A DNA stretch of 64,000 nucleotides from NCBI GenBank assembly GCA_035403465.1, contig DAONFG010000013.1, forward strand, positions 1,830 through 65,829, given 5' to 3'. The number at the start of each line of letters is the position of its first letter. The first letter of the stretch is position 1. The translations under genes and the position numbers were made by a program. This stretch comes from Spirochaetota bacterium. Lineage in GTDB: Bacteria; Spirochaetota; UBA4802; UBA5550. A model generated the notes under the pieces. It saw nothing but the letters and a program-made list of their open reading frames with translations. It did no database searches and was not told where the DNA came from. Shown here piece by piece: positions 11,512-47,367 of the stretch.

Positions 11512-11553
11512 GTTAACCCCTGGATTATTCATATTTCCGGAACTTCAGAACTT

Positions 11554-12063
11554 TTACTTAAGGTGTGAATGCGAATTCATGATCTCCACAAATTCCTCTA
11601 CCTGTTTCGCATCTATTATGCCGATCTTCTTTATGCTCTCGGGACTAAAGAGCGCGAAAACTCCTGTTGCAGATGCGCTCACCTCACCTTTTGAGTTTAT
11701 GATGCACCCCTTCATGACAACTTCGCGTTCACTGGTACGGGCATCTATTTCGGCTTCAGCCCTGAGGCGTTCGTGCATTAATGTTGGTTTATGATAGGTA
11801 ACGGTCATGGTCTTGGTCAGGATGAATTTCTCGGTAAGGAAGATAGCGCCCCAGGCCATGACCTCGTCGAGCATTGTTGACAGTATGCCGCCATGAACTA
11901 CGCCGTTCCAGCCCGCCATATAATCGGGCACATCCATTTCAGAGAATACAAGTTTATCGTTGCCGTGAAACTCCATACCCAGGCCCTTATGGTTTGCCGG
12001 TCCGCAGCCGAAACAGGTATTATGCGCCGTATTGGGAATTTTTATAAAATCAGCCCTGTTCAT
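11554..12063 (-). CDS. PaaI/hotdog-fold thioesterase
   Basis: The motifs CFGCGPANHKGLGMEF and VVHGGILSTMLDEVMAWGA are typical of PaaI-family thioesterases. I moved the start to ATG 12063 (MNRADF...). Confidence 0.75.
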   Translation of the reverse strand: MNRADFIKIPNTAHNTCFGCGPANHKGLGMEFHGNDKLVFSEMDVPDYMAGWNGVVHGGILSTMLDEVMAWGAIFLTEKFILTKTMTVTYHKPTLMHERLRAEAEIDARTSEREVVMKGCIINSKGEVSASATGVFALFSPESIKKIGIIDAKQVEEFVEIMNSHSHLK

Positions 12064-12334
12064 CCAGCTGTCCGTCCTGTAAACTTTTATTTCGAAAATA
12101 GAGCATGACGTCAACAGAAATCATGCAGAAATTGACCAGGTAGAGTATGATCACCCTGTCCCTGAGAAAAAATATTTTATGCAGAATACCCGCCACGTAG
12201 CCCGCAAGCACGATTATCAGGAAAAAAAGGCTTTTACCCTCTACTGAACGGGATTTCCAGCTTTTATATATAGAAACGGGCCATGCAGCACCGAAACAAA
12301 CAAGCATTATAATCTCAAAGATACTCATAATCAA
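12050..12334 (-). CDS. small 3-TM membrane protein, PQ-loop/SemiSWEET-like (tentative)
   Basis: 94 aa with three hydrophobic helices. The segment AWPVSIYKSWKSRSVEGKS resembles a PQ-loop motif followed by K-x-K-S..G.S. Confidence 0.4.
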   Translation of the reverse strand: MIMSIFEIIMLVCFGAAWPVSIYKSWKSRSVEGKSLFFLIIVLAGYVAGILHKIFFLRDRVIILYLVNFCMISVDVMLYFRNKSLQDGQLDEQG

Positions 12335-12516
12335 TCCTTATATGATCTGATAGATTTTCCAACCGGGAATTGCAAGCAATAAAAGCCCCGGAATGCATTT
12401 TATACCCTCATGTGGCCGTGTTTTTGACACCGGAAGTTTCCCAACAATATTGATTTTGTTGACAAATCTGTTAGCTTGTAATTTATATAATAAAAAATGA
12501 ACATGAGGTAATCCGG

Positions 12517-12858
12517 ATGAGTCTGCTTAGTGAAATGGGTGATTCTCTGATAAAATACGGTGAAATCCTGATCAGCAAGACCGAGGATTTTACCCGTACA
12601 GCAAGAATTAGAATAGAAATACGCAAAAAGGAAATAGAAATCAACAACATAAAAATCATAATTGCCGACCATGTCATAGCACAGACGCACAAAAAGGCTG
12701 CCATCGACGCGGAACTTGTCAATGCACGGATCAGCGCCATAAATTCACTCAACCTTGAAATAACAGGTCTCAAGGTCAGACTTGAGGAGCTGAAGAACCA
12801 AAGTAATGCGCCGGAATCGGATAAAAACGGCACTGAACCAGGGACATTAAAAGAGTAG
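12517..12858 (+). CDS. hypothetical coiled-coil protein
   Basis: 113 aa with heptad-like, charged sequence (IRIEIRKKEIEINNIK...LEITGLKVRLEELKNQ). It ends 2 nt before the rnr start. Confidence 0.5.
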   Translation: MSLLSEMGDSLIKYGEILISKTEDFTRTARIRIEIRKKEIEINNIKIIIADHVIAQTHKKAAIDAELVNARISAINSLNLEITGLKVRLEELKNQSNAPESDKNGTEPGTLKE

Positions 12859-12860
12859 CC

Positions 12861-14978: not shown

Positions 14979-15298
14979 AGTTTGTCCTTCACCACAACGA
15001 GAGCTTCCCGCCTCATTACGACCTTATCCTTGACACCGGCGGGACTGTTGAAATATTCAGGATACCTGAAGATTTCTTCTTTGATCTTGTAAGCGGGTCA
15101 CCGGTGGAATACGAAACAGTGACCGGTGCTGATAAAAACAGCGGGCCGGTGAACTGTGGAGAGGGAAAAGTTTCAGTTGAAGACTCAGGCGAGTATAGCA
15201 TTGAAAAGCCAGGTACCATGATACTGAAAGGCGTGAAGATCAGCGGCAAACTCATTGCTGATTCCGGCAGCAGGCATATTACGCTTATACCGGGCTGA
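14975..15298 (+). CDS. short LigD 3'-phosphoesterase-like (DNA polymerase ligase N-terminal domain) protein, putative
   Basis: MKFVLHHNESFPPHYDLILDTGGTVEIFRIPE resembles the FVIxxH....HYDLxLE..G.L..W start of the LigD PE domain. Its ATG overlaps the rnr stop (ATGA). Confidence 0.4.
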   Translation: MKFVLHHNESFPPHYDLILDTGGTVEIFRIPEDFFFDLVSGSPVEYETVTGADKNSGPVNCGEGKVSVEDSGEYSIEKPGTMILKGVKISGKLIADSGSRHITLIPG

Positions 15299-15338
15299 AA
15301 CCGGTCGGTCCATGATTATTTAAACAGCGGAGGCTTCT

Positions 15339-16385
15339 GTGAAAAAAGCGGCAATTGTCGGTGCTACAGGTTTTGGCGGACTTGGACTTATCGACATTCT
15401 AACCAGGCACCCTGAAATTGAAATCGTGTTCCTCTCTGCACTGGATCACGGAAGCAGGATTTCGGCAATGTTCCCGCACCTTGAGGGCATATGCGGGCTC
15501 GAGGTTATTCCCCCTGAAAAAATTGAAACTGACGGTATTGACATAGTATTCCTATCAACACCGGACCAGGCGGGAATGAAAATTGCCCGTAAATTTTACG
15601 ATAAAAAAATCCCGGTTATAGACTTCAGCGGCGACTTCAGGTTCGGATCAACTGATGACTACAGGGTCTATGCCGAGAACAAGGGGATGTCAGCAGTTCA
15701 TGATTCACCTGACCTGCTGCCGGCATCAGTCTACGGCCTCCCTGAAAAATATTATGACAGGATAGCCGGTGCCGGAATCATAGGCAATCCGGGATGTTTT
15801 GCCATGAGCATGATCCTGGGCCTGCTCCCGGTTGTTGAAGCCGGAATGATCAGTCCCGGTACCGTAATCTGCGACGGCAAGACAGGTGTTTCAGGCGCCG
15901 GGATCAACCCGGGAAAAGCCAACACCTACCCTGCCAGGTACGACAACACCAATACCTATAAAGAAGGAAAACACCAGCACCAGGTTGAGGTTGAAACCGT
16001 GCTTAATCATTTCGCATCAAAGGGAGAGTATAAAATAATGTTTGTGCCGCAGATAGTTCCAATGAACCGCGGCATATTGACAACCATATACTGCGATCCG
16101 GCATCTTCATGCGACACAAAAAACCTCATTGAACTATATACCGGGTATTACGGTAAATCACCTTTTATCCATGTCACTGACAAGTCACCTTCAACGGCAG
16201 AGGTCAGGGGAACAAACAGGTGCCTTATCTCTCCGCGCTATGATTCCAGGACCGGAAAGATACTCATAGTATCGGTTATCGACAACCTTATGAAGGGACA
16301 GTCAGGCAACGCTGTTCAGAACGCCAATATACGTCTTGGTTTTGACCAGGAAGCAGGTCTTGACCTGAATCCGTTTTACCCTTAA
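15339..16385 (+). CDS. argC: N-acetyl-gamma-glutamyl-phosphate reductase
   Basis: GTG start. The Rossmann motif is AIVGATGFGG, and the active-site motif is GNPGCFAMSMILGLLP (catalytic Cys). The C-terminus is NLMKGQSGNAVQNAN. Confidence 0.9.
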   Translation: MKKAAIVGATGFGGLGLIDILTRHPEIEIVFLSALDHGSRISAMFPHLEGICGLEVIPPEKIETDGIDIVFLSTPDQAGMKIARKFYDKKIPVIDFSGDFRFGSTDDYRVYAENKGMSAVHDSPDLLPASVYGLPEKYYDRIAGAGIIGNPGCFAMSMILGLLPVVEAGMISPGTVICDGKTGVSGAGINPGKANTYPARYDNTNTYKEGKHQHQVEVETVLNHFASKGEYKIMFVPQIVPMNRGILTTIYCDPASSCDTKNLIELYTGYYGKSPFIHVTDKSPSTAEVRGTNRCLISPRYDSRTGKILIVSVIDNLMKGQSGNAVQNANIRLGFDQEAGLDLNPFYP

Positions 16386-32878: not shown

Positions 32879-33612
32879 ATGGCAGATCAGAAACTAAATG
32901 ATATAATAAAACTCAGTTCAGAGATAAATACAGTCCGGGACCTGGATATACTGCAGGAACGCATACTGTATGAAACAAGAAAAATTGCCGATGCAGATGC
33001 CGGCACCATATACATACGGCACCAGGATAACCTTGTGTTCACACACGCGCAGAACGACACACTGAGCAGCAGGCTACCCGAGGGTAAAAAACTTATTTAT
33101 TCCAGCTTCCAGCTCCCTATAACAGGGAAGTCCATTACGGGGTACGCAGCCATGGCGGGTGAAACCCTTATGGACGATGATGTTTATTCAATACAGGGCA
33201 AGCCCTATTCATTCGAAAGTCATACGACGAGAAGGCCGGGTACAGGACTGAATCGATGATGAGCATACCGCACAAGAACGAAAGGAACGACATACCGGGC
33301 GTCATGCAGATAATAAACACACGCGACTGCAGCGGTCAGATAATCTCTTTTAATGACAATGACATGCTCTATGTGAATCACTTTGCGGGAATGACAGGCA
33401 TGATCATACAGAAGGCGCAGATGCGCGATCCCAAGGAGACGGGCGCACACGTTAACCGCGTAGCATCATATTCAGTAGAGATTTATGAGCTTTGGGCAAA
33501 ACATAAAGGTCTGCCGGACAGGGAGATAAGGGACCTGTCCGGAAAAAAATTCGACCCTGACCTTGTAGATGTCTTTTTTGAATGCCTGGACTTGATAAAA
33601 TTCATACGATAA
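32879..33612 (+). pseudogene. decayed GAF + HD-GYP signalling gene (frameshift and internal deletion)
   Basis: The GAF domain is split between two frames at the A-run near 33215-33219 (..GKPYSFE / KSYDEKAGYRTESMMSIP..VMQIINTRD). The HD-GYP start (RDPKETGAHVNRVASYS) joins directly to the family's C-terminal GKKFDPDLVDVF, with no HD or GYP motifs in between. Confidence 0.6.
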
Positions 33613-33632
33613 AAATACCCGGAGACAGAAGA

Positions 33633-35504
33633 ATGATCGCTGACAAATATGAACTTGAAAAATACCTGGGCGAAAATCCCTGGCCCCTTGCATTTTCCCA
33701 GGAGAGACAGGTAGAATATATCTATAAATTCCACACAGAACTGTCACGTGAGGAGATATGGAAATTCCTTTCGGACACGTCGGAATTAAACCGTAGCCTG
33801 GGACTTAAAAAAATATCTTTTACAGAAAGGGATGGAAAACTGTACGGCACAGGCAGCCCGGGGTGGTACAGGGCCGAGTGGGAGGAGGTCCCCTGGCAGT
33901 GGGAGTACCCATCAGACATAAAAATGTCAAGGATCTACAGCAGGGGAATTGCGTCATATGTAAGGATACACTACTTTATACGGAAACCTGCCGGGTCAGG
34001 AAATGATATCTGCATGTACTTCGGATGGGTTCCTTCGGGATTTACAGGAAGGATCCTGCTGAAACTTTCGATAAGGCGTTTTGAAAAAAAGTTCAGGTCA
34101 GTGATCGAAAACCTGAAACCCGAAATTGAAGAAAAGCCCTTCTTCTACCTGAACCCGCAGATTGCTGAACCTAAAGCCGGCATGAACAAAAAGGACTCAC
34201 CGGTTGACGAAGGAAAACTTGACCGTTTAAAACAGGATATAATAAATTCCGGTTCCCCTGCACCGGCTACAGAGGCCCTGGTTAATTTTATCAGGAACGC
34301 GCCCGATGACCAGCTCTACAGGATCAGGCCCTTTGAACTTGCAGGAAAGTTTAACACAGGGAGGGATGATCTGCTTAAGACCATGCTGCACGCATGCCTG
34401 GGCGGACTGCTCAACATGTCGTGGGATGTAATATGCCCGCATTGCCGCGGTGTACGAGAAAGGCACGCCCTGCTGCGGGAAATCGGCAAAACCGCGTCAT
34501 GTGAAATCTGCGATATAGTATTCTCTCCCGGCTCCCTCAACATGATCGAGATAATATTCACCATTAATCCCGAAATCAGGAAAGTTGAAAGAGTATTATA
34601 CTGCAGTGCTGAACCTGCAAAGAAGCCCCATATAGTTCTACAGAAGCACCTTCAACCGGGCGGCAACTACCTCTTTATACTTCCGCAGTACGAAAAGCGC
34701 CTCAGGTTCCGCGTACATGGAAAAAAATACTACGGCCTGCTGGACCTGAAAAAGAATGCTCCGCTCCGAAACCTCTACTGGGACGACATAAGCAGCAGCA
34801 CAATAATAGAAACAGCACCGGGATCAACGGTTTTCCTTAGCAATACTGAAAAATCTCCCGCCGGTTATGTCATTGAACACAGCGAAGATGACGCGAATGC
34901 CCTCCGGCCGTCGGATTTATTCAGTTACCAGGAGTTCCGGGACCTCTACTCTTCAGAGGCTGTGGCCGCTGACCTGGCGATAGACATAGGTGTCCAGAAC
35001 ATCATGCTTGTTGACGTGGCAGGTTCAACAGGTTTCTACGGTGACACGGGAGACAGCCGCGCCTTCCTTACAATGAAGCAATATTTTTTACAGGTCCACG
35101 ACATCGCAATGGAATACCGCGGCGCAATAGTGAAGACACTTGGTGACGGTGTGATGCTTGTATTTGACAAACCAATGAACGCTGTCAGGGCAGGTATCAG
35201 GATACTGAAAAATTTCAGCGGCGACGGTGACTTCCCGTTCACTGTAAGGGTATCCATTCACAGGGGTCAATGTCTTGCTGTAAACCTTGACAGTGCCATT
35301 GACTGCTTCGGCCAGGCAGTGAACGTTGCTGCAAAGCTGCAGAACTTTACAGGTTCAGGCGAAATGACCCTGTCGGAATCCTTTGCATCTGAACATACGG
35401 TTGACAGGTACCTGAACGAAAAAGGATACACGAAAAATTTTACGGAAGCACGGATCACTGGAGCCGGGAGTATAGGGTACCTGAAGATTAAGGTGAAGAG
35501 GTGA
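33633..35504 (+). CDS. class III adenylate/guanylate cyclase with large N-terminal sensor region
   Basis: The C-terminal CHD motifs are IMLVDVAGSTGFY, KTLGDGVMLVF, RVSIHRGQC and FGQAVNVAAKLQ. A central CxxC...CxxC motif is present (CPHCRG...CEIC). GGAGA RBS precedes ATG 33633. Confidence 0.8.
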   Translation: MIADKYELEKYLGENPWPLAFSQERQVEYIYKFHTELSREEIWKFLSDTSELNRSLGLKKISFTERDGKLYGTGSPGWYRAEWEEVPWQWEYPSDIKMSRIYSRGIASYVRIHYFIRKPAGSGNDICMYFGWVPSGFTGRILLKLSIRRFEKKFRSVIENLKPEIEEKPFFYLNPQIAEPKAGMNKKDSPVDEGKLDRLKQDIINSGSPAPATEALVNFIRNAPDDQLYRIRPFELAGKFNTGRDDLLKTMLHACLGGLLNMSWDVICPHCRGVRERHALLREIGKTASCEICDIVFSPGSLNMIEIIFTINPEIRKVERVLYCSAEPAKKPHIVLQKHLQPGGNYLFILPQYEKRLRFRVHGKKYYGLLDLKKNAPLRNLYWDDISSSTIIETAPGSTVFLSNTEKSPAGYVIEHSEDDANALRPSDLFSYQEFRDLYSSEAVAADLAIDIGVQNIMLVDVAGSTGFYGDTGDSRAFLTMKQYFLQVHDIAMEYRGAIVKTLGDGVMLVFDKPMNAVRAGIRILKNFSGDGDFPFTVRVSIHRGQCLAVNLDSAIDCFGQAVNVAAKLQNFTGSGEMTLSESFASEHTVDRYLNEKGYTKNFTEARITGAGSIGYLKIKVKR

Positions 35505-35575: not shown

Positions 35576-37291
35576 TCAGGGATTCTGCTTATAAACATCT
35601 ACGAGGCTGTAAACCTCATCATTAAGCACTTTTTCAAACTGCTCCCTGTCAGGAACAGGGCGTTTAATCATTTTCATTATCTTTTCAAGCTGCGCTTCTG
35701 AATTAAGCGGTTTGCCGTAAAGCTCCACTGCAAATGCAGAGAAGTCCCTTACAAAAAGATCGAACATCTGGTTCATAACCGCGTCGCTGATCTTCTCAAT
35801 CTTCGCACTTTCTATGATAAGGTGTCCATAGGCAACCATTGTAAAAAGCTCACCTACTGCAAGGAGGTAATCGAACTCCATCATCTGCTTCATGAGGTCC
35901 TGGCCTGAGACCATGAGGTACTCCTTGTACGCCTGGATCTGCTCCATGAAAACTTTCACATTGGGCAGGTGTGCAAGACTGCTGTACACCGGGTTGAAGT
36001 CATGAAATTTTGTTTTGGCATATGCCTTGGTCGGTCCCTGCCTGAACATGAAGTCGTCGTTCCTGTTGTCAGTGATCCTTCCGATCTCCTCGAACTGGCC
36101 GGGCATGAACATGTAGCTGGGAATAAGTTTAGCGATCAGGGCCATGTTCACATGACGTGTACCTTCCAGCTTAGGGAAACCCCTGAGCTCTGCAACAGCC
36201 TGTTCAAAGTACATGTCCTTTTCAAAGCCCCTTGCAGCAATAATATCAAAAAGGTGCTCATGAACTGTCTCCCCCTGGATAGCGACCTTCATTTTCATAA
36301 TCGGGTTGAAGAGCAGGTAACGCTTGTCGTTCTCATTTGCAATCCTCATGTAGTCTGTAGCACGAAGGCCAAAGAGCTTCATGCCCATTATCCTGAGCCA
36401 TGCATCAGAGAAAAGCCTCTTGACATGCGCGAATTCTGTCACCCTCTGTCCGTAAAGCTCCCTGTGGTACGCGTGGTTCAGGGATTCGTATAGTGAGTGT
36501 GTACAAATTCCTGTCGCTCCTGATCCGATGTTGAACTTGCATATATTGATCGTGTTAAGCATATCGTCCCATGCCTTGGGACCTCGTGAAAGAATATCGG
36601 CTTCGGTAATGGGATAATCATGAAGAGCGAACTCGGCAACATACTGCTGGTTGGCATCAATAACATTCTTAACGCACTCATAATTCGGGTGAGCTGAATC
36701 CACGGCAAAGAATACATACTCGCCGGTATCAGCGATCTTTCCGAAAACAGTTACCGTTGATGCCACGTTACCGTTTCCTATATAATACTTGCTGCCGTTT
36801 GCGACATATGTTCCGTCACCTTTGGGGTAGAGCTTCATCTCGGATGAATATATATCCGCGCCATGCTCTTTCTCAGAAAGACCGAACGCGCAGAATGCGT
36901 TCTTTTTAAGTTTTTCTGCTGCCCTCTGTTTGGCCTCTTCGTTGTCTCCAAGAAGAACAGGGTCAAGTCCAAGGGTCGACACGTGGTATGTATACCAGTA
37001 TGCCGCGCCGTAAAATCCGCATATCTCGGAGAATTCATAGTTTCTATATGTGCTGTAGTACTGGTTGGGGTCAGAGCCGTAACCTTTGGGAAGGAAGATT
37101 GTTTCAAATATCCCCTCTTCGGTTACAAATTTCTGCCAGTCTTCGCACCACTCCCTGTTATGATATGCTTCTTTCTGTTTAGCAAGTCCCTTTTTTTCAA
37201 ACCATTCAATGGTTTTAAGCATGATCTCCTTTGACCGTGCATCGGGATAATTTCTGTCTCTGTAAATTTTGGGATTAAGTAGTATGTTCAT
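35576..37291 (-). CDS. acyl-CoA dehydrogenase-family protein, long (~570 aa) form, paralogue 1
   Basis: The middle-domain motif is FGLSEKEHGADIYSSEMKLYPKGDGTYVANGSKYYIGNGN. The ACAD-like helical N- and C-domains are present. AAGGAG RBS. Confidence 0.75.
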   Translation of the reverse strand: MNILLNPKIYRDRNYPDARSKEIMLKTIEWFEKKGLAKQKEAYHNREWCEDWQKFVTEEGIFETIFLPKGYGSDPNQYYSTYRNYEFSEICGFYGAAYWYTYHVSTLGLDPVLLGDNEEAKQRAAEKLKKNAFCAFGLSEKEHGADIYSSEMKLYPKGDGTYVANGSKYYIGNGNVASTVTVFGKIADTGEYVFFAVDSAHPNYECVKNVIDANQQYVAEFALHDYPITEADILSRGPKAWDDMLNTINICKFNIGSGATGICTHSLYESLNHAYHRELYGQRVTEFAHVKRLFSDAWLRIMGMKLFGLRATDYMRIANENDKRYLLFNPIMKMKVAIQGETVHEHLFDIIAARGFEKDMYFEQAVAELRGFPKLEGTRHVNMALIAKLIPSYMFMPGQFEEIGRITDNRNDDFMFRQGPTKAYAKTKFHDFNPVYSSLAHLPNVKVFMEQIQAYKEYLMVSGQDLMKQMMEFDYLLAVGELFTMVAYGHLIIESAKIEKISDAVMNQMFDLFVRDFSAFAVELYGKPLNSEAQLEKIMKMIKRPVPDREQFEKVLNDEVYSLVDVYKQNP

Positions 37292-37366: not shown

Positions 37367-37734
37367 TTTGTAAACAAAATGGAACGACGTTCTTTTGTGT
37401 CAACAGAATTTACTATTATAAATTTAATTTGGGGAAAAAACAACAGTGTTTATTCCTAAATTGCTGTACAGAAAAAGCCATGGACTTAAACATTGAAAAC
37501 GCTGAACAATTTGAGACTATTCACCATTAAAATAATACAAGTTGAGAAATTTGCTCAGAAAAATTGAGTTCAGATGAGGAACTTGTTCTATAAAAATACC
37601 GCTATTCGCTTGTAATTTGACAAAAATGTAATATTATAAGTAATATATAAGCTCTATTTGAGACAATTTCAGGTAAGGAGATATCCAGGGTTTAACATTT
37701 TGTATGCAGAAATACTCCCGGTGCAGTAATAACT

Positions 37735-39054
37735 ATGACTAAAAAGGCAGCAATTAATAAATTTTTCAATTCAATGGGATTCAAAATTCTCGCCGCTTAT
37801 GTGCTGCTTTCACTTATTAATCTATCTTTTATTGTTTCTATAATTTTTGAAAACCAGGCTGATCTGATAAGCCGGAATACCAAGCTTGAATCCGAAAAGC
37901 AGCTGGCAGAATTAATCGGTTCAATAAAGAAGTTTTCCATTGAAACAAAAAAGGGATCGTTATTCACCCGGGGTAAGACCGGTGAATTTCTGAAACAGAC
38001 ACTGGATTTATTAAGCATCCACTCCAGCAATTATTTTGTATTCAGTGAAAAAGGTTCAATCCTGATAAGGTCATCTGACAGGATTGAACCCCCTGACACA
38101 TATCTTAAAGACGGCCTTCGCTCGTTAACGGCAATGACCTTCTCCGGGAAAGAATACTATCTGCGGATAGATGAGCAGAAAAGACTCATGTACTGCTACA
38201 TTCCGCTGAGCGGGTTCCAGCTCGGGGATTCGATCCTTCTCCTTGAGAAAGAGATAAATGGTATGAATGAATCCCTGAAGCATCTTTATTCCCAGGTACT
38301 TTACGTAATTCTCATAGTCATTTTCTTTCATACAGTTTTCGCGTTACTCCTCTTCCGTTATATCATTAAACCTGTTTACCTTTTAATAAACGGCGCAGAA
38401 AGTTTATCGGAAGGAAAGCTGCACACGCGCATTCACCTACCCGGCAGGAATGATGAATTTGCCTCGCTTGCCCATACATTCAACCGCATGGCTGAATCGA
38501 TGCACAGCAATGTTCAAAATCTTTCAGGCGAAATCACCAGTGCCAGGGAGATCATTAAAAAATCTGAAAAAAAGACAACGCGTGATGATCTTACCGGACT
38601 TTTTAACCGCCAGTACCTCATGGAGCGTCTTGACGAAGAGACTAAAAGAACAAAAGTAAACAATTCCGCCACGGCCCTGATGCTCATAGAGCTTGATAAT
38701 TTCAAGGAGATAACCAGTATATACGGCCACCAGACTGAAAATATTATAATCGCTGAAAGTGCAAAAAAAATAAACCGCTCGTTAGCAGCCGGCGAAATCG
38801 CCTCACGTTACGACGACGAGATGTTCGCCGTATTAGCGCCGGGCATAACAGCTCCGCTGATGCTGGAGACAGCGGAAATTATCAGGCGCACGATTTCTGA
38901 ATCCAACATTATTACGGCTGACGGAGAATTCAGGGTTACAGTAAGTATCGGGGCAGCCGATACCTCAGGCAGCCGGGATTTAAGGGAGCTTGCAGAGGAA
39001 GCAATTAAAAAGGCACGGGAAAACGGAAGAAACAGAGTGGAGATTATTTCGTAG
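37735..39054 (+). CDS. membrane sensor with HAMP and degenerate GGDEF domain (DDEMF in place of GGDEF)
   Basis: It has two TM segments flanking a periplasmic region, and a HAMP domain (EGKLHTRIHLPGRNDEFASLAHTFNRMAESM). The GGDEF fold is shown by RDDLTGLFNRQYL and LDNFKEITSIYGH, but the active site reads SRYDDEMFAVL. Confidence 0.8.
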   Translation: MTKKAAINKFFNSMGFKILAAYVLLSLINLSFIVSIIFENQADLISRNTKLESEKQLAELIGSIKKFSIETKKGSLFTRGKTGEFLKQTLDLLSIHSSNYFVFSEKGSILIRSSDRIEPPDTYLKDGLRSLTAMTFSGKEYYLRIDEQKRLMYCYIPLSGFQLGDSILLLEKEINGMNESLKHLYSQVLYVILIVIFFHTVFALLLFRYIIKPVYLLINGAESLSEGKLHTRIHLPGRNDEFASLAHTFNRMAESMHSNVQNLSGEITSAREIIKKSEKKTTRDDLTGLFNRQYLMERLDEETKRTKVNNSATALMLIELDNFKEITSIYGHQTENIIIAESAKKINRSLAAGEIASRYDDEMFAVLAPGITAPLMLETAEIIRRTISESNIITADGEFRVTVSIGAADTSGSRDLRELAEEAIKKARENGRNRVEIIS

Positions 39055-39063
39055 AGCACTGAC

Positions 39064-40356
39064 ATGAAAAAGTATTCAATCATAGCATTGATTTTAACAA
39101 GCCTGCTGGTTACCGCATACCTCGTATTCATCAATAAAATCAACATATCAATCAGGTTAAGCGAACTCGCGGCAAGCCTGCAGGAGCTTGATAAAAATGA
39201 AAGTAACATTGACCATATAGGCCTTATCGCAACATATGAAATAAATAAAAAAATCTACGAAAACCGCATCCAGCAGGAGGAGGCTGACACGCTTGAGCAG
39301 GTTGTCGACTCTCTTGTCGTCAAAGAAAAAAATTACCCATCGGCAATACAGACTCAGTATGGTTTTTTATCCTTACCGGGCATATGGATAATCAATTTCA
39401 ACAGGAAAATACTCGGCAAAAATCCGCTGTATTACAAGGCTGATACAGGCAGCACATCTCCTGACCTTGATATGGCTTATTATTATGAAAGAAACTATTT
39501 ATTTGAACATGCCATCAAGCGCTACGAAAAGGCGCTTGAAGAGAGGACTCTCAGCAGTACATTCAGGGCAAGCATCCTGCTTCACCAGGGTTACTGCTAT
39601 GCTCTTGCGGGAATAAATGACAAAGCCCGGGCAAATTACCTGGCAATAATGGAAAAATTCCCCCAGGAAAGCAGCGCAATAACAGCGGCTATCCTGCTGA
39701 AATACCTTGAAGGGTTCCAGCTTGCACGGGACCGGATACTGGGTAGTGATGCCGATCCGCTCACCATGAGCCAGGACCTGATGAACCTGCTTGCGTACAA
39801 GCAGGCCATGCAGATCTTAAAGGAAGCGGAAAAAAAAGCCTCCCCTGATGATCTGCCAAGGATAAAGTATTTCATGGCAAGATGTTATACAGGTATGGGC
39901 CAGCCGGATAAGGCAATCGAGAGTCACCTGGAGGTTATTACCCGCTCGCCATCATCAGACTACGCCAGGGATTCCAACCGGAAGATCCTCCTGATTGGTA
40001 CAAGAAGCGGGGATAAAAAAATCATAGCCATAGCAAAAAAAGTCAATACCAGGCTTAAAGACCCGGTTTTTGACCAGATGGTTATTGAACAGGAAAAGAC
40101 AGGGAATACAGAAGAATTAACCGGAGTTGTAAAAATCGATCTCCCTCAAAAAATGATAGATGATGTGGATAAATACACGAAGACAGTTGAGGATAAACCC
40201 GCCGCGCAAAGAGAACTGGTCATACTTACAAGTGACGGTAACACTTTCAAGGGAATCCTTGTAAAAGAGACATCAGCAGAAGTCGTGCTCGAAACATCAA
40301 TCGGGACCATTACCGTAAAGAGAGAGAAAATCACCCGCATAACAGGGAAGGAATAG
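39064..40356 (+). CDS. membrane-anchored TPR-like protein
   Basis: It has an N-terminal TM helix and TPR-like pairs (AYYYERNYLFEHAIKRYEKAL; HQGYCYALAGINDKARANYLAIMEKFP; ARCYTGMGQPDKAIESHLEVI). It starts 9 nt after the previous stop. Confidence 0.6.
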   Translation: MKKYSIIALILTSLLVTAYLVFINKINISIRLSELAASLQELDKNESNIDHIGLIATYEINKKIYENRIQQEEADTLEQVVDSLVVKEKNYPSAIQTQYGFLSLPGIWIINFNRKILGKNPLYYKADTGSTSPDLDMAYYYERNYLFEHAIKRYEKALEERTLSSTFRASILLHQGYCYALAGINDKARANYLAIMEKFPQESSAITAAILLKYLEGFQLARDRILGSDADPLTMSQDLMNLLAYKQAMQILKEAEKKASPDDLPRIKYFMARCYTGMGQPDKAIESHLEVITRSPSSDYARDSNRKILLIGTRSGDKKIIAIAKKVNTRLKDPVFDQMVIEQEKTGNTEELTGVVKIDLPQKMIDDVDKYTKTVEDKPAAQRELVILTSDGNTFKGILVKETSAEVVLETSIGTITVKREKITRITGKE

Positions 40357-40363
40357 TATCCTT

Positions 40364-41185
40364 ATGCCAGCCAGGATCCTGCTTGCACTTATACTCACCA
40401 TATTCCCGTTCACAACGCTCTTTGCTGATATTATTATTACCATTGATGACATGGTCCTCAACGGCAAGATACTTGAAGAGAATAAAAAAACAGTTACATT
40501 CGGCAACTACCATGGAATCTTCATCATAGACCTTGACAAAATCAAGGAGATATACAGGACCGGCAGTTATGAAGATGATTTAAAAATACTCAGCGACAAG
40601 GGCAGAGTGGTCAATAAGGATGAAGTCAGAACCAACTACGATTCGGGACTAAAAAAGATCCGGGAATTTGAAATCGAGGAAGATGGCCGGGAACCTTTTA
40701 CTTACTTTAACCTTGCAATCGCGCCGTATATTATTTTTAATTTGGGAAAACTTGGTACGATCCTCCCCTGCAGTTACGGTGTTTCATTAACTGCCTGTAT
40801 TCCGGTCAGTAACTTCGAGTTCGCAAAAAAAATATTTCTTTCAGGTGTCAGTATCGAGGCCGGGTACTTTTATTCAGAGAAAGGAGAACGGGGTGTGACC
40901 GGGTACCGTGCATCAGCAGGACCGCAGTGGCAGTTCCCTGTTCTAACCGGTTCATTTAAACTGGACTGGTTTATTTCCGCTGCGTTCGGTGCAGGCTGGT
41001 ATAACGTAAAGGGACTGGAACAGGAGATGACAGCTGTAAAATGGAATTCCGGAATCAGTACCGGCCTGGTATTCACCGTTTCTTCAATAACGATTTCACC
41101 ACTGCTCAGGTTTGATTATATATATGACAGCAAGGTCCCCCTTTACGGAATGGGTGCTGCTCTAAGCTTAGGCTACAGGTTTTAA
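40364..41185 (+). CDS. putative outer-membrane beta-barrel protein
   Basis: It has a signal peptide (ILLALILTIFPFTTLFA) and an alternating-hydrophobic C-terminal half. It ends in ...AALSLGYRF, a terminal-Phe OMP signature. It starts 7 nt after the previous stop. Confidence 0.5.
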   Translation: MPARILLALILTIFPFTTLFADIIITIDDMVLNGKILEENKKTVTFGNYHGIFIIDLDKIKEIYRTGSYEDDLKILSDKGRVVNKDEVRTNYDSGLKKIREFEIEEDGREPFTYFNLAIAPYIIFNLGKLGTILPCSYGVSLTACIPVSNFEFAKKIFLSGVSIEAGYFYSEKGERGVTGYRASAGPQWQFPVLTGSFKLDWFISAAFGAGWYNVKGLEQEMTAVKWNSGISTGLVFTVSSITISPLLRFDYIYDSKVPLYGMGAALSLGYRF

Positions 41186-41196
41186 GCAGGCAAGTG

Positions 41197-42237
41197 ATGA
41201 GAATATTAAAATATAAATATAATTCCGGATACCAGGTAAAAGTAAAAAACCTGCTTCGCAGTTACCTGCTGCGCAAACTCTATGCACCGGCTGTAACACT
41301 GTTCAGTATAATCCTGTTATGTTCAGGGTGCGGCGATGAGTTCGGGATACTGCTGGATGATCCTCACACTGATCCTGGAATATACTGGACTGAAAATAAT
41401 AAAACAATCAACTATGTAAAGAAAGACAAAACCGGCAAAAAAACACTACTCACCGGTTCTGGCATACCACTTGACATAGAAATTTACCCTCCAGGCAGGA
41501 AAATATACTGGACTGAATACACTGGCAGCGCATTTCAGATATGGAACGCAAGTACTGACGGCAGCAGCAAAACCCTGTTTTACCAGCCGACAGGCAGTGA
41601 TTTCGGGCCAACAGCAATTGCGGTCGATCCCTTAACCGGACTGGTATACTGGAATGAATATAGCGTATCATCCGGTCACAATGATGTCTGGCGTTCGCCG
41701 GCATATGCCCCTGAAAAATGGGTTAAGACAATTACACCTTTTTACACCTTAGATATGTGCATCGATACGATAAACAATAGAATATATATTACAGCAAATA
41801 ATTACTGGGACATCTATACGACATCATCAATATTTTTTGGATCGGGAAACAGCGGTGTTATATGCAACGGCAACCTTATTGATGGCTCATACTCACTGCC
41901 GGTCAATGGAACGGGGCCGACGGATCCTTCTATTTCACTCAGGGGCATAGCAGCAGATGGGACTGCAGGTTATGTGTATTATGCAAACAATGACAGCTCG
42001 TACAATCAGACAATCAGAAGGGCACTATCAGCTAATTTAGCAGATAGCGAGGAATGGATTTCAGCAGGTAGCTATGCTATCCGGAAAATCGCTCTTGACC
42101 TTAAAGAGAGAAAAATATACTGGACATCGGGTTCTGGCACCAGCATTTGGCGTGCAGACATTGATACAGCGAATTCAAACATTGAACTATTCCTTTCCCT
42201 GGACAGCATACCTACAGGCATCGCCATTGTACCCTGA
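41197..42237 (+). CDS. lipoprotein with YWTD-type six-bladed beta-propeller repeats
   Basis: A lipobox-like LLCSGC is present. Six spaced repeats contain IYWTE / IYWTEY / VYWNEY / IYITAN / VYYANN / IYWTSG, reminiscent of LDL-receptor class B (YWTD) blades. Confidence 0.6.
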   Translation: MRILKYKYNSGYQVKVKNLLRSYLLRKLYAPAVTLFSIILLCSGCGDEFGILLDDPHTDPGIYWTENNKTINYVKKDKTGKKTLLTGSGIPLDIEIYPPGRKIYWTEYTGSAFQIWNASTDGSSKTLFYQPTGSDFGPTAIAVDPLTGLVYWNEYSVSSGHNDVWRSPAYAPEKWVKTITPFYTLDMCIDTINNRIYITANNYWDIYTTSSIFFGSGNSGVICNGNLIDGSYSLPVNGTGPTDPSISLRGIAADGTAGYVYYANNDSSYNQTIRRALSANLADSEEWISAGSYAIRKIALDLKERKIYWTSGSGTSIWRADIDTANSNIELFLSLDSIPTGIAIVP

Positions 42238-42265: not shown

Positions 42266-44335
42266 TCATAAATATTTCGATATAAGTTCATCAACCGGAA
42301 CCGGACGGCAGAAATAGAATCCCTGGAACATGTCGCATCCCAGGCCTTTAAAAAATTCAAACTGTTCCTGCGTCTCAAAGCCCTCTGCTATAACCTGCAG
42401 GTCAAGGGAATGCGCCAGTTCCATGATATGCCGCACCATCGCCTCTTTCCTTGGATCTCCAGGTACTGACTGCGTAAAAACCATATCCATTTTTAGAATA
42501 TCAACCGGAAGCTCGGCAAGGTATGTAAGCGAAGAAAATCCCTTGCCGAAATCATCTATCGCGATTTTAAAACCGCTAGTCTTAAGCCGGGAAAGGCTCT
42601 CCCTGCCCGCAGCAATGTTCTCCATCAGCCGGTCTTCAGTTACCTCAAGTGTTATGCGGTTATTTTCGATCCCGTGCTGCGCCGCGAATGACGAAAGAAA
42701 TTCACTGTACGCTGTATCGACCAGCTGGATTGTGGATAGGTTTATACTTGTGCTGAACCTGTTCCTGATTTTCATCTCCATATCATGAAAAGCCTTATGA
42801 ACGACCATGTTGTCGACCTCTTTCATAAGTCCCGCATCCTCCAAAACAGGCAGGTACTTATCGGGTGCCCCTATGGAAGTGTCGCTTCCAGTGTACCTCA
42901 GAAGAGCTTCTGCGTGGATCAGTTTTTTATCATGATCAACAATCGGCTGGTAAAACAACGTGAACTCGTTCATGACTATACTGTTCCTGAGTATATTGAC
43001 TGTATGAATTTTCCTGCTTGTGACATCCAGGAGGTCCTGTGTAAATACCTGGAAGGTATTCTTTGTTTTTTTTGCACTGCCGATTACCCGGTAGGCATTG
43101 CTGAGAATTGTTGTGACATCCCTGCCGTCCTGGGGCACCTGGAGCACGCCGGCGCTGGCAGTTATCATGCAGGTAATCCCTGAAACTCGGAAAGGATTCC
43201 TGAGGCAGGTGATAATTTTGCCGGCAATGTCCTGCGCTTCTTCCATTGTCACTACATCCCAGAGCATGAGGGCAAATTCATCACCACCTATGCGGTAGAG
43301 AGATCCGCAAGTTGAAAAAAGTTCTATGATCCTTTCAACAAGCATCTCCAGCACATCATCACCGACATTTTCACCGTAACATTCGTTCAGGCTCTGGAAA
43401 TCATCAATATCAAGGAAAACAATAAACATGGTGCTCCTTTCCCTGTCGATCCTGGTCAGTTCATCCTGGAGATCCTTGTGGAACGCCATCCTTCCCGAGA
43501 TATTCAAGGCCAGGTCATTGTAGATGGAGAATTCCAGTACAGTCCTGGCTATCTCCATCTGATCGGCTTTTGTAAAGATAGTTTTAATCCTGCCCCAGGT
43601 GATGAAAAGCAGGCAGCTCACTATACCCAGGCTGAAAGAAGGGATCATGGTGCTCCCGCTGGCGCTTACAGGCGTGAATATAATATTATAGAGATAAAAT
43701 GAAAGGAAATAGGTGATGATTATCATTCCGGCTATCATGTACCTGTCAGGGTAAATGTCATGCCTGGCCAGGCCGTAAACCAGGATTATACATAATGAAT
43801 AGACCGCGTAGATCACCAGCATTATATTTTTTATCATGAACAACGGTCCGGTATCACTTCCCTGCATGTGCATTTTATAAATAACATCGCCATTCCCGGT
43901 TAATTCTTTGATCATCAGGCCCGGATTGTAAAGGGTTGCAGCGGCGATCAGAAAAAATACGGCTAGTGATGCCCTCAGCAGGACTGTGTTATATTTATTT
44001 ATTATCCGCCCATGACCGGAAATTTGTCTGATATACACCAGAAGAATGACAGGGAAGACGAGCATGAACGTTTCACGAAAAATAAGACAAAAAGCGGCCC
44101 TGCCTGTATCGGGATAGATATATGAAAAAATAAACGCGAAAGCATCGGCGGATATATAGATCAACACTGTACAGCTGAACACCATCGAGAGTAATGTTTC
44201 CTTTTTCCTTAGAATGCAGTATGTATATGAAAACTGCATCAGGGCGCAACTGGCAATTCCTGCGAAAAGAATTGTTACGGTAAAATATAATAACGGAATA
44301 TTGGCCATGCTCACCCCTGTAAAACTACTTTCCAT
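42266..44335 (-). CDS. polytopic membrane sensor with GGDEF and EAL domains (both apparently intact)
   Basis: The N-terminal ~260 aa are multi-TM. The GGDEF domain shows FLDIDDFQSLNECYG...YRIGGDEFALML. The EAL domain shows YQPIVD...AEALLRY, IDDFGKGFSSLTYL, KMDMVF and IAEGFETQEQ. Confidence 0.9.
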   Translation of the reverse strand: MESSFTGVSMANIPLLYFTVTILFAGIASCALMQFSYTYCILRKKETLLSMVFSCTVLIYISADAFAFIFSYIYPDTGRAAFCLIFRETFMLVFPVILLVYIRQISGHGRIINKYNTVLLRASLAVFFLIAAATLYNPGLMIKELTGNGDVIYKMHMQGSDTGPLFMIKNIMLVIYAVYSLCIILVYGLARHDIYPDRYMIAGMIIITYFLSFYLYNIIFTPVSASGSTMIPSFSLGIVSCLLFITWGRIKTIFTKADQMEIARTVLEFSIYNDLALNISGRMAFHKDLQDELTRIDRERSTMFIVFLDIDDFQSLNECYGENVGDDVLEMLVERIIELFSTCGSLYRIGGDEFALMLWDVVTMEEAQDIAGKIITCLRNPFRVSGITCMITASAGVLQVPQDGRDVTTILSNAYRVIGSAKKTKNTFQVFTQDLLDVTSRKIHTVNILRNSIVMNEFTLFYQPIVDHDKKLIHAEALLRYTGSDTSIGAPDKYLPVLEDAGLMKEVDNMVVHKAFHDMEMKIRNRFSTSINLSTIQLVDTAYSEFLSSFAAQHGIENNRITLEVTEDRLMENIAAGRESLSRLKTSGFKIAIDDFGKGFSSLTYLAELPVDILKMDMVFTQSVPGDPRKEAMVRHIMELAHSLDLQVIAEGFETQEQFEFFKGLGCDMFQGFYFCRPVPVDELISKYL

Positions 44336-44666
44336 TTATAATATGGACGTTTATAATGCATTAATCAACCCTTAACCGGAAATAAAATAATCCGGCATTG
44401 CAATATGTGATATTCCGTTTCCCTGTTTGTCAATTATGATAATACTTTTTTATTGCGCTGATATTCAGAAGGTACTGGCATATAATGCTCCCTGGTAAAT
44501 AAAATATATAATTAATCTGATTTTTCAATCCTGAAATATTGACTGAAGATCGATTTTTATACAATATACTTAGATAAGCTGTTAGTTCAGGGATCATTGT
44601 TAATCTATCCCCGATTGAAAATGAAGCTGCCAGGGTAACAATTAACATATATTGAGAGGTTTCCTG

Positions 44667-45584
44667 ATGTTAAGACTTACACAGATTATCCGTCATGCTG
44701 CTGTACTAATCCTTGTATACACATTAGCCATGGGAATCTCCGCCACCCTGGCCGGGGAAACATCGGACTTTACTGTTCGAATGAACGACCGGCAGGCCCT
44801 GAAAAAACTTGAACCATGGAAGAGATCCATGCTGGACACATACCTTGCAGCAAACAGGCGCTCATCAAAACCCGATGCAGTGAGTTTTACCATGATGACT
44901 TTATCACTCATGCCCGGAAAAGATATATACTTTGCCGACGGATACGCCCGGGGCGGACACGAATTTTTAATTCCCCTGCTGCTCATTGCAGATAAAGATA
45001 AAGCCCGCATTCTTGATACCGGCACCGACCGACTTGACTCCGATGGAAATAAAAAATCTTTTACGGTTTCAAATGCCTGCACCCGGGAGTATTATGCGGA
45101 AACTGACCGGTACGACTCAGGTTCCGGCGCTAAATGTGACAAGTGCTTTAACCAGCTTAAAAAACATTCATGCATTGACCTGAATTCACTGCTGACAGAA
45201 ACGATAAAATCAGCTGTTAATGAAAATAAAATTGGCAGGGAATTTATATTAAACGGGGCAAGATGCATGGCAATCCTGGTAAACAATTCACGGGAGGCTT
45301 ACATTCCTGAAAAATCCGGGGATATAATAGATGAGCGGTTTAAAGCGCTGATCAAATCCGGAAAACAGCGGACAGGCGCGGCCTGTTGGAATAAAGAAAA
45401 CAAATCCATAGAATCCCCGTTAATACAGGTTTCGGGAAACAGTTTCAGCATATCAGGAGTTATGGAAATTACTGGAGGTTCACCGGGTAACAGCTGCCTC
45501 ATCGAATTTGAATTCTCATGGGACGGGAAAACAATCCGCTTCATACAGAAGGAACTGGCAAAGACCATAACGTACATTGAATAA
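44667..45584 (+). CDS. hypothetical secreted protein
   Basis: The signal peptide starts at ATG 44667 (MLRLTQIIRHAAVLILVYTLAMGISATLAG). It contains several Cys residues, and no motif was recognised. Confidence 0.5.
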   Translation: MLRLTQIIRHAAVLILVYTLAMGISATLAGETSDFTVRMNDRQALKKLEPWKRSMLDTYLAANRRSSKPDAVSFTMMTLSLMPGKDIYFADGYARGGHEFLIPLLLIADKDKARILDTGTDRLDSDGNKKSFTVSNACTREYYAETDRYDSGSGAKCDKCFNQLKKHSCIDLNSLLTETIKSAVNENKIGREFILNGARCMAILVNNSREAYIPEKSGDIIDERFKALIKSGKQRTGAACWNKENKSIESPLIQVSGNSFSISGVMEITGGSPGNSCLIEFEFSWDGKTIRFIQKELAKTITYIE

Positions 45585-45669: not shown

Positions 45670-47367
45670 TCAGTCATTCATCCTGTATTCAGATTTCATC
45701 GGGTAAACCCATTTCTCCCATACCCTCATGAACTTATCCATATCCGCAACGGGGTTCATGATCATCTTCATGCAGTATGCAAGCTGTTCAGGTGAATTTG
45801 ACTTCTTCTGGTAGAGCTGCACAGCGTACTTTGAGAAGTCCCTGACAAGCACGTCAAAGATCATATCAAGTACATCGTCTTCTACTTTCTGGAGGTGCGC
45901 ATTTTCAATGATGAGCTGGCCGTAAGCAACAACGGTCATCAGTTCACCTATTGCAAGGAGATAATCGATATCTGAATTCTGTGCTTTTGTAGGTGTTGCC
46001 TTGGCAAGGAATTCCTTGAACACGAGTATCTGCTTTTTAAGAACATTTATATTCGGAAGGTCCTTGCTGTTATACGCTATATTGTAATCATGGAACTGTA
46101 TCCTGCTCAGGCCGCTTGTTGGTCCCTGGTTCAGGAGGAAAGTGTCATTCCTGTCATCAGCAACAGACGGGATTGCAGGGAACTGGCCGGGGTTGAAGAA
46201 GTAATTTGTTATGAACTTAACAACAAGCGCCATGTTTACATGCACTGTACCTTCAAGTTTGGGATACATCCTGATCTCAACTGTAGCCATCTCGAAGTAT
46301 GGTTCACTCTCGAATCCCCTTGCCGCAATAACGTCCCACAGCAGGTTGATTACCTCTTCCCCTTCCCTTGTGACCTTCATTTTACAGAGCGGATCATAAA
46401 GCAGGTAGCGCCTGTCTTCTGCAGATGCCGTCCTCATATAGTCAACAGCGCGAAGGTTAAAGAGCTTCATCGCGCATATGCGCAGGTAAGCGTCTGTAAG
46501 GAGCTGTTTAACATGCGGAAAATCTGTTACATACTTTCCGTAAAGGTTCCTGTTTGCAGCATGCTCAACCGCTTCATAGAATGCGTGTGTGGCGATACCC
46601 ACGGCTCCTGGCCCCAGGTTGAATTTACACACGTTTACAGTATTCAGCATGTTGTCCCACGCCTTGGGACCTTTTTCCGATATATCAGCATTGGTTATGG
46701 GGTAGTCATGAACAGCATATTCAGAAACATAGTTCTGGTGGGCAACAACGTTCCGGATACACTCATAGTTTTTATGTTTTGAATCAACTGTGAAGAATAC
46801 ATATTCATTTGTATCAGCCATCTTGGCGAATGTTGATACCATTGCGGCTTCATTACCGTTCCCGATATAATACTTGTCGCCGTTTGCCTTGTATGTGCCG
46901 TCACCCTGCGGGTAAAGCATCATATCGCTTGAATAGATGTCTGCACCATGTTCTTTTTCTGAAAGGCCGAAAGCGAATACTTCACCCTCTTCAAGAAGTT
47001 TCGCGGCCTTATGCTTCATCTCCTCATTGCTTCCCATCCAGATGGGGCATATTCCGAGCATTGAAACGTCCCATACATACCAGTATGTGATCCCGTAGAA
47101 TCCCATGAGTTCAGCCCAGTGGAAAGTCCGGTATGTATCCCACCTGTTGTCCTTTGCGCCATATCCTGCAGGCGTGAGCAGTTTGGCAAAGTATTTGTGT
47201 TCCTTCTGAAAATCAACAAAATCCTTTGGCCATGTCCTGTTGTGGTAGTCCTCTTTAACCTTTTTGAGTCCTTTCTTTTCGAAAAACTCGATGGTCTTAA
47301 GCATCATCTCCTTCGATTCCTTGTCAGGAAACTCCACATTGTATTTTTTCGGATTTAAAAGTAGCAT
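45670..47367 (-). CDS. acyl-CoA dehydrogenase-family protein, long form, paralogue 2
   Basis: It is colinear with 35576..37291, and by eye roughly half the positions are identical. Shared blocks are FGLSEKEHGADIYSS, GDGTY.ANG.KYYIGNGN, KLEGT.HVNMAL and DYLLA.GEL.T.VAYG.LIIE. Confidence 0.75.
   Translation of the reverse strand: MLLLNPKKYNVEFPDKESKEMMLKTIEFFEKKGLKKVKEDYHNRTWPKDFVDFQKEHKYFAKLLTPAGYGAKDNRWDTYRTFHWAELMGFYGITYWYVWDVSMLGICPIWMGSNEEMKHKAAKLLEEGEVFAFGLSEKEHGADIYSSDMMLYPQGDGTYKANGDKYYIGNGNEAAMVSTFAKMADTNEYVFFTVDSKHKNYECIRNVVAHQNYVSEYAVHDYPITNADISEKGPKAWDNMLNTVNVCKFNLGPGAVGIATHAFYEAVEHAANRNLYGKYVTDFPHVKQLLTDAYLRICAMKLFNLRAVDYMRTASAEDRRYLLYDPLCKMKVTREGEEVINLLWDVIAARGFESEPYFEMATVEIRMYPKLEGTVHVNMALVVKFITNYFFNPGQFPAIPSVADDRNDTFLLNQGPTSGLSRIQFHDYNIAYNSKDLPNINVLKKQILVFKEFLAKATPTKAQNSDIDYLLAIGELMTVVAYGQLIIENAHLQKVEDDVLDMIFDVLVRDFSKYAVQLYQKKSNSPEQLAYCMKMIMNPVADMDKFMRVWEKWVYPMKSEYRMND

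Follow-up and report, generated by a model that had tools for sequence, protein, structure and literature searches.

A conserved gene cluster of uncultured Spirochaetota as a candidate trans-envelope sensory relay with a GGDEF-type sensor

To our knowledge, routes leading from the outer membrane or the cell surface to a cytoplasmic second-messenger enzyme are known in few diderm systems, namely Rcs, NlpE-Cpx, the Fec-type systems and YfiBNR. In Rcs (RcsF-OMP-IgaA, OMP being an outer-membrane protein) and NlpE-CpxA of enterobacteria, an outer-membrane lipoprotein whose N-terminal linker lies on a beta-barrel signals to the inner membrane and from there to a cytoplasmic transmitter. LapD/LapG and PelD/PelE/PelB/PelC contain an inner-membrane protein with a HAMP or a degenerate GGDEF domain, and Pel also has an inner-membrane-anchored tetratricopeptide repeat (TPR) protein, an outer-membrane barrel and a lipoprotein. 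For the sensor gene lb139 of Leptospira interrogans, which belongs to the lb139-lb136 locus, the primary study is reportedly that of Eshghi et al. 2014, Infect Immun 82:2542. The cluster analysed here is formed by four co-directional genes (g1 to g4) and a convergent one (g5), and lies in a stretch of 64,000 nucleotides (nt) of contig DAONFG010000013.1 (assembly GCA_035403465.1) from a Spirochaetota bacterium; this whole stretch is called the window below.

According to published accounts, the product of lb139 is a sensor whose phosphatase domain may bring about a partner switch. A transposon mutant in this gene neither killed nor colonised hamsters and had down-regulated motility and chemotaxis genes, and lb136-lb139 behave as an operon, adjoined by a STAS gene and by a gene for a phosphodiesterase of cyclic di-guanosine monophosphate (c-di-GMP) (PMC5100919, PMC5318464, PMC8638967, PMC13066512). 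The sensor is a genetically supported regulator (PMC5100919, PMC5318464, PMC13066512). The HAMP-GGDEF cyclase of the Pseudomonas aeruginosa system YfiBNR (TpbB) is controlled by two partners, an outer-membrane lipoprotein and a periplasmic protein (PMC2837407, PMC3375315, PMC4655355, PMC4887326).

With a little more confidence than doubt, we read the cluster of the window as an outside-in trans-envelope sensory relay. Its genes are the following, g1 to g3 being given as in the list of open reading frames (ORFs) and the locations of the products being predicted:

g1, 37735-39054, + strand: 439 amino acids (aa), inner-membrane sensor
g2, 39064-40356, + strand: 430 aa, membrane-anchored periplasmic TPR protein
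g3, 40364-41185, + strand: 273 aa, outer-membrane barrel protein
g4, 41194-42237, + strand: 347 aa, YWTD propeller lipoprotein, with a GTG start and an ATG one codon later
g5, 42266-44335, - strand: 689 aa, convergent protein with seven transmembrane (TM) helices, GGDEF and EAL domains

The original prediction had taken g1 to g4 for one closely spaced envelope operon. The four co-directional ORFs and their coordinates were confirmed, with intergenic gaps of 9, 7 and 8 nt, and g5 faces g4 at a distance of 28 nt. Whole-genome searches gave adjacent matches to g3 and g4 in many relatives, and 12-18 kb were fetched around them; the related loci were found by the search with a g3 alignment, and a contig search from g4 alone found none. 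The order g1-g2-g3-g4 with convergent g5 was kept in about 20 uncultured Spirochaetota genomes of several families, among them those labelled G014, G025, G006, G034, G028, G024, G013, G184 and G341 and further named contigs of metagenome-assembled genomes (MAGs). The flanking genes were unrelated, so the grouping exceeds what is expected by chance and the predicted co-conservation held. All the named records carrying the module are uncultured Spirochaetota MAGs, some of them labelled Leptospirales. The junctions measured mostly from -26 to +17 nt, overlaps included, and an all-against-all ORF comparison of 13 loci revealed only these five families as common to at least 10 of them. The gene g5, originally mentioned as a downstream neighbour, proved to be part of the block, since 18 of the 22 clusters with enough sequence to tell have it at this place.

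The protein g1 is predicted to consist of TM1 (aa 17-37), a periplasmic domain (38-184), TM2 (185-207), a HAMP domain (206-257; Pfam, E 2e-10) and a GGDEF domain (282-434). The hydropathy profile agrees with two hydrophobic segments enclosing the 147-aa periplasmic domain. This domain alone had no relative in Pfam or NCBIfam at E up to 10, nor in profile searches of Protein Data Bank (PDB) sequences. Two elements of g1 are of concern here:

37846..38286, + strand: periplasmic input domain, with a near-invariant FENQxDL right after TM1
38812..38826, + strand: degenerate active-site motif DDEMF (aa 360-364, read as RY-DDEMF), replacing GG(D/E)EF

The PF00990 profile recognises the GGDEF fold itself (101 bits, cut-off 23.8; E 5.5e-29), and the catalytic motif is lost, both glycines and the fourth-position glutamate being gone. 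An RxxD I-site five residues upstream of DDEMF is also absent, the residues there being AAGE. Because of DDEMF and AAGE, g1 is predicted to be no cyclase, its GGDEF domain being unable to synthesise c-di-GMP, and to be devoid of the usual c-di-GMP-binding site. Orthologues from the syntenic clusters share 34-50% identity with g1. In their alignment, the active site is GGEEF in 6 of 22 distinct orthologues and degenerate in the other 16, and only a distant one (locus L030, with REID) has an RxxD-type I-site. The 16 decayed motifs are all different (AGEEF, SGEEF, VGEEF, DGEEF, SGDEF, TDDEF, ADDEF, ADDSF, SNDRF, INDRF, GTDMF, EGLVF, SEENI, SGENI, GPSGF and DDEMF), indicating that the site has decayed many times over while the GGDEF domain and g5 were retained. 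Since six orthologues retain the canonical GGEEF, the ancestral g1 would have been an enzyme. The best NCBIfam match of g1 over the full architecture is DgcN/YfiN (aa 180-423, E 3e-25, 88.8 bits against a cut-off of 325).

Beyond the GGDEF domain, the sensor part of g1 defines a rare family, since a phmmer search with aa 1-205 retrieved 113 proteins among 1.84 billion representatives. HAMP was present in 76 of 81 full-length relatives, which ended in SpoIIE/PP2C (40), GGDEF (37) or hybrid kinase HisKA-HATPase-REC (3) outputs; input domains typically show such a variable transmitter. A search of 122 genomes of the order yielded 69 sensor-domain genes, spread over 50 genomes (about 40% of those searched), and a g3-like gene lay within 8 kb on the same contig for 54 of the 69, most exceptions being on short contigs. 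In addition, the sensor domain occurs in 55 of 75 genomes of another Spirochaetota family, as HAMP-PP2C proteins of about 500-513 aa. Paralogous loci of the PP2C type (L050, L058, L059, L062 and L067) occur within the same taxonomic order. Their HAMP-PP2C sensor shows 30-33% identity to g1 over aa 13-263, their own TPR protein 31-34% to g2 and their barrel protein 23-28% to g3, and their lipoprotein heads are LamG_3/DUF2341, Kelch plus PKD, or five cadherin-like domains plus DUF2341.

These outputs bear on the opposite direction of control. Here, as in LapD, c-di-GMP or GTP bound to the g1 GGDEF domain would act through HAMP on the capture or release of a TPR-barrel-lipoprotein assembly, with a change at the surface such as adhesion. 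The degenerate site of g1 and of most orthologues, the co-conserved gene for a c-di-GMP enzyme alongside, the weak NCBIfam match of the LapD model to the g1 HAMP-GGDEF part (42.6 bits against a cut-off of 1020) and lipoprotein heads resembling adhesin or ligand-binding domains would all suit it. However, g1 has neither the RxxD I-site nor an EAL domain, the six orthologues with GGEEF point to an ancestral enzyme, and the PP2C and kinase transmitters to which this periplasmic module is also fused act as outputs rather than as receptors of nucleotides. Moreover, the Leptospira homologue acts as an upstream transcription regulator (PMC13066512). We consider control from inside improbable. The idea of the original prediction that c-di-GMP possibly controls the complex is not supported; the fusions, the lacking I-site and the GGEEF orthologues point to signalling from the outside, c-di-GMP being its output.

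The protein g2 has a TM anchor (aa 5-24), seen as one long N-terminal hydrophobic helix in the hydropathy profile, a conserved membrane-proximal segment, TPR repeats at about aa 135-300 and a C-terminal small beta domain (384-428). Its family carries a near-invariant N-x6-R after the TM helix, in the periplasmic, membrane-proximal segment, and in the loci compared its gene always adjoins the sensor gene, either just downstream or in divergent orientation. The TPR matches in Pfam and NCBIfam were individually weak, a profile search of PDB sequences gave generic TPR matches only, and the isolated N-terminal region matched nothing in Pfam or NCBIfam (E up to 10) apart from weak hits to Leptospira-specific families. 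The C-terminal domain is located as follows:

40213..40347, + strand: C-terminal small beta domain of g2, homologous to the N-terminal domain of g3

The last approximately 45 residues of g2 are homologous to the first approximately 45 residues of mature g3 (hhalign probability 94.9%, E 4e-8; pairwise BLASTP, E 0.004). Through g2, one copy of this small domain is tied to the inner membrane, and g3 ties the other to the outer membrane. When isolated, these domains gave only a weak NCBIfam match to LA_3334 (E up to 10). The NCBIfam models related to them are Leptospira-only (Lepto_7_Nterm, LA_3334 and LB_137). The g3-type small N-terminal domain also stands alone at the start of many proteins of about 250-500 aa across the phylum, with examples outside the order at G187:C13:34395-34613 and G141:C20:17581-17790.

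The layout of g3 comprises a signal peptide (aa 1-21), a five-stranded N-domain (22-66), helices (69-107) and an eight-stranded barrel (116-273) ending in LSLGYRF, with an aromatic terminal residue. No Pfam or NCBIfam family matched g3. Its AlphaFold2 (AF2) model, built from 38 homologues with a predicted local distance difference test (pLDDT) score of 83, displayed the small domain, two helices and eight long strands at aa 116-272, and Foldseek retrieved NspA (E 5e-7) together with Ail, OmpX, OmpA and OprF-N. This likeness is at the fold level only, the sequence identity being 10-17%. As modelled, g3 is a small eight-stranded outer-membrane barrel of the OmpX/Ail/NspA/OmpA-N type.

The AF2 model of g4 (pLDDT 86) is a six-bladed propeller at about aa 62-346, and the best 50 Foldseek matches in the PDB were all YWTD proteins (LRP4, LRP6, LDLR, megalin, nidogen; probability 1.0, E about 1e-14). 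Although g4 itself falls below Pfam reporting, part of its homologues match PF00058; its model identifies it as a propeller of the YWTD / LDL-receptor class B. Some YWTD orthologues bear Ig-type stalks (Big_2 x5, DUF5018 x7, or ASH). The lipobox ...LLCSGC|G of g4 has its counterpart, ...(S/G)GC|G after a hydrophobic stretch, in all orthologues, from which lipidation is predicted. The residues that follow define a further element:

41329..41361, + strand: predicted lipidated Cys46 and peptide CGDEFGILLDD of g4, a proposed docking motif

A peptide in this position is common to module lipoproteins with unrelated heads. Its 'EF' form, CG(S/D)EFx(I/V)L(L/M)(D/E), was present in 12 lipoproteins of GGDEF-type modules, and a 'GL' form, C(G/S)xGL(D/N)xL, in 5 lipoproteins linked to PP2C or to a chemoreceptor (MCP). 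In the monomer model of g4 the peptide is disordered (pLDDT <50), which would be consistent with a short motif that folds only on its partner. When the pattern was looked for in the first 110 aa of the 5226 ORFs of the genome, of which about 248 are lipobox-like, a single ORF carried it. The peptide as a general lipoprotein sorting signal was therefore rejected, because g4 is its sole carrier in the genome.

Two other roles for these parts were considered. First, the system could primarily serve the display or anchoring of a surface lipoprotein, g3 and g2 exporting or holding g4 through its peptide and the sensor monitoring this, with adhesion or ligand capture as the main function. The lipopeptide specific to module lipoproteins, the variable length of the Ig-like stalks, which fits surface exposure, and the nearly constant adjacency of barrel and lipoprotein genes, including a pair without HAMP sensor next to a chemoreceptor gene (locus L051), speak for such a role. 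Nevertheless, no part is conserved more strictly than the sensor-TPR pair, which persists in Leptospira without barrel or lipoprotein, a conventional translocon would need a wider barrel than one of eight strands, and the module is always coupled to a signalling protein, so that we regard display as an unlikely main function.

The second role, a structural system like Tol-Pal for envelope integrity or division, had been suggested by the original prediction through a loose resemblance to TolB, CpoB and Pal. The composition of propeller, TPR protein and outer-membrane protein is indeed superficially similar, and the TPR region of g2 gives a match to the CpoB/YbgF model TIGR02795 (E 5.5e-8), but a weak one, with 33.4 bits far under the curated cut-off of 90.1. 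Furthermore, Pfam searches detected no OmpA_C/Pal, TolB_N/PD40 or TolQRA in the cluster, and the propeller of g4 matches YWTD propellers and not TolB, and is replaced by other folds in the paralogous modules. Unlike a core envelope machine, the module was also confined to a minority of the searched genomes of the order. We give this function hardly any credence, and the resemblance proved superficial.

The relay that we favour would work as follows. The lipoprotein g4 would present a ligand-binding head, here the YWTD propeller, at the outer membrane, where it would be retained by its lipid and by the docking of its N-terminal peptide onto the g3 barrel and/or g2. The periplasmic N-domain of g3 would pair with the homologous C-domain of g2, linking the outer membrane to the inner-membrane-anchored g2, which would touch the periplasmic domain of g1, and g1 would then transmit the signal across the inner membrane. 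The cytoplasmic transmitter would be interchangeable across the family (GGDEF, PP2C phosphatase or hybrid kinase). We read this as a periplasm-to-cytoplasm input module with outer-membrane partners because the input part (periplasmic domain of the sensor, TPR and small-domain protein) is constant, the transmitters are interchangeable, as are the heads, which resemble ligand binders, and the peptide is conserved. The genetic support for the homologous lb139 sensor as a regulator also speaks for the relay. Since the g1 GGDEF domain, with its DDEMF, appears unable to make c-di-GMP, the output would here most likely pass through the co-conserved g5, possibly by a contact between the GGDEF domains of g1 and g5 that tunes c-di-GMP hydrolysis. 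In g5, seven predicted TM helices are followed by GGDEF (Pfam, E 1.3e-25) and EAL (E 2.6e-62) domains with intact GGDEF, EAL and DDFGKG motifs, and E(A/S/T)L and DDFGKG are conserved in its orthologues, which suggests that g5 is likely a c-di-GMP phosphodiesterase.

The TM signals, the folds and the g3 barrel agree with the span of inner membrane, periplasm and outer membrane that had originally been assigned to the products, the location of g4 following from its conserved lipobox by prediction only. A trans-envelope complex is reasonable in view of these predicted locations and of the strong co-conservation; the physical contacts within it, the direction of the signal, the surface exposure of g4 and the coupling of g1 to g5 are what we infer beyond that. 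Several points weigh against the relay. Gene linkage in related genomes does not count as independent evidence, 4 of the 22 informative clusters have no g5, and no regulatory or promoter motif common to the upstream regions of 20 g1 orthologues was seen. The eight-stranded barrel offers no obvious route for passing a signal and may be an anchor only. Finally, the output step is the weakest part, g1 having what appears to be a dead GGDEF site and no I-site.

A wider proposal, which we hold only tentatively, is that such clusters are modular spirochaete trans-envelope receptors, in which swappable lipoprotein heads (YWTD, Kelch, LamG, cadherin-like) at the outer membrane, possibly on the surface, are plugged by a conserved lipidated peptide onto a barrel/TPR/HAMP relay whose cytoplasmic end may be of the cyclase, PP2C phosphatase or kinase type. 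If true, it would explain two uncharacterised genes of the Leptospira lb139-lb136 locus, as well as the decay of the cyclase site with the domain retained as a regulator of g5.

The module varies among relatives. The sensor gene is relocated beside g5 in G019 and G341, and in G008 and G226 the YWTD gene is replaced by one for another small lipoprotein on the opposite strand. At locus L032 (G008:C2), positions 5558-6334 (+) encode a 258-aa lipoprotein in the place of the YWTD gene, with the peptide C-N-S-N-E-F-A-I-L-L-E and no Pfam match. In G307 stop codons (TGA and TAA) interrupt the sensor gene and the propeller gene has been lost, the TPR, barrel and GGDEF-EAL genes being retained, and the module appears to be decaying there:

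L053 (G307:C8), 9598-10668, and G307:C8:237329-237915: decayed module of G307

Locus L064 (G426:C31:2045000-2064000), at 7764-15732, has two sensor genes arranged back to back, a TPR gene for each of them and only one barrel gene; one sensor is of the GGDEF type, and the other, a hybrid kinase of 898 aa that contains REC and Hpt, has a divergent TPR gene. Locus L051 (G014:C1:508000-524000), at 5768-10967, holds the third g3-like barrel gene of G014, beside a dCache-HAMP chemoreceptor gene, and on the other side of the barrel gene a 675-aa lipoprotein starting C-Y-N-G-L-D-E-L-I. The barrel-lipoprotein pair may here serve the chemoreceptor too. In the source genome, which is 89% complete, the module was found only once.

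Upstream of g1 there is an AT-rich gap of 443 nt, in which one promoter-like sequence was identified as a weak lead:

37617..37646, + strand: promoter-like TTGACA-18-TAATAT (10/12 match)

In the scan of the region for promoters and terminators the number of sites did not exceed the shuffled expectation, that is, it was at background level, and the same scan found no + strand terminator between g1 and g4. As for the neighbouring genes, two paralogous long acyl-CoA-dehydrogenase-like genes flank the cluster (35576-37291 and 45670-47367, both on the - strand) and lie outside the block conserved in relatives. An ORF of 310 aa between g5 and the second of them (44652-45584, +) has a hydrophobic segment at its N-terminus, had no Pfam match and is not conserved with the cluster. 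Further upstream there is a gene for a DUF5939-class III nucleotide cyclase (33582-35504, +), for which relatives show no synteny; with this gene, g1 and g5, genes of nucleotide second messengers are abundant in the neighbourhood.

If the relay is true, the module would add a different parts list to the known routes across the diderm envelope, in which the receptor is a plug-in lipoprotein and the further parts are a small barrel, a TPR connector with a domain common to both membranes and a HAMP sensor with swappable outputs. LB138 and LB137, the uncharacterised partners of LB139, would gain a concrete testable role. The repeated independent decay of the cyclase site beside a conserved phosphodiesterase offers, moreover, a case study of the passage from an enzyme to a pseudo-enzyme regulator.

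Comparison with the known systems begins with those built of similar parts. In contrast to LapD and PelD, g1 has neither the degenerate EAL receptor domain of the former nor the I-site of the latter, its periplasmic part matched no LapD/MoxY domain in Pfam or NCBIfam, and the cluster contains no protease, adhesin, glycosyltransferase or polysaccharide porin. Memberships in BAM, Pel and Lap were rejected on domain content. With respect to Rcs and NlpE-CpxA there is no relation in sequence or fold and the outputs are other, the module having large interchangeable heads and a dedicated TPR connector. The likeness to YfiBNR resides in the tripartite control of an inner-membrane TM-periplasmic-HAMP-GGDEF protein. 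However, the partners are not homologous, YfiB being a Pal/OmpA_C-like lipoprotein and YfiR a small soluble repressor, and the cyclase site of g1 is, by its residues, dead; no OmpA_C or YfiR-like domain was matched in g2 to g4 with Pfam and NCBIfam.

The relation to Leptospira is one of homology in part. The TM-periplasmic-TM-HAMP input part of the Leptospira sensor is homologous to that of g1 (24-33% identity over g1 aa 1-205, E 1e-7 to 1e-16 per genome). At three Leptospira loci (L068-L070), which are the lb139-lb136 locus of L. interrogans, the gene next to the sensor matches the g2 profile (E 1e-37 to 1e-40; membrane-anchored TPR), the following or divergent gene belongs to the NCBIfam LB_137 family (322-387 bits against a cut-off of 200) and encodes a secreted protein with a small N-domain of the same type, and a gene for a STAS anti-sigma antagonist is adjacent. 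Just past the STAS gene, L069 carries a gene for an EAL-domain protein and another small ORF that is STAS-like (2170-3807, +; 5234-5695, +; 5803-6201, -). The EAL gene of L069 echoes the c-di-GMP enzyme beside g1 to g4, and the layout matches the description in PMC13066512.

The two systems differ in their output and in their outer components. The Leptospira output is a PP2C domain with a STAS partner-switching substrate, whereas the cluster of the window has an apparently dead GGDEF domain and a facing GGDEF-EAL enzyme, with no STAS gene. The third protein of the LB_137 family is not recognisably an eight-stranded barrel and has only the N-domain in common with g3. Full-length homology between g3 and LB_137 was rejected, since the alignment covered the first 40 residues only (hhalign probability 54%) and g3 scored below the LB_137 model. 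Judged by these alignments, the third component of Leptospira is analogous to g3 and not orthologous. A propeller lipoprotein with the docking peptide is absent from the Leptospira loci examined. Of the members of lb139-lb136, the cluster thus shares the sensor and its cognate TPR protein, and lacks the SpoIIE output, the STAS gene and the LB_137-family protein. The original statement that no system of this composition has been described must be narrowed, as the sensor-TPR pair is homologous to the published lb139-lb138 of Leptospira, and it stands for the form with the GGDEF domain. The cluster is a conserved and previously undescribed GGDEF-output variant, whose PP2C-output relative is known genetically in Leptospira.

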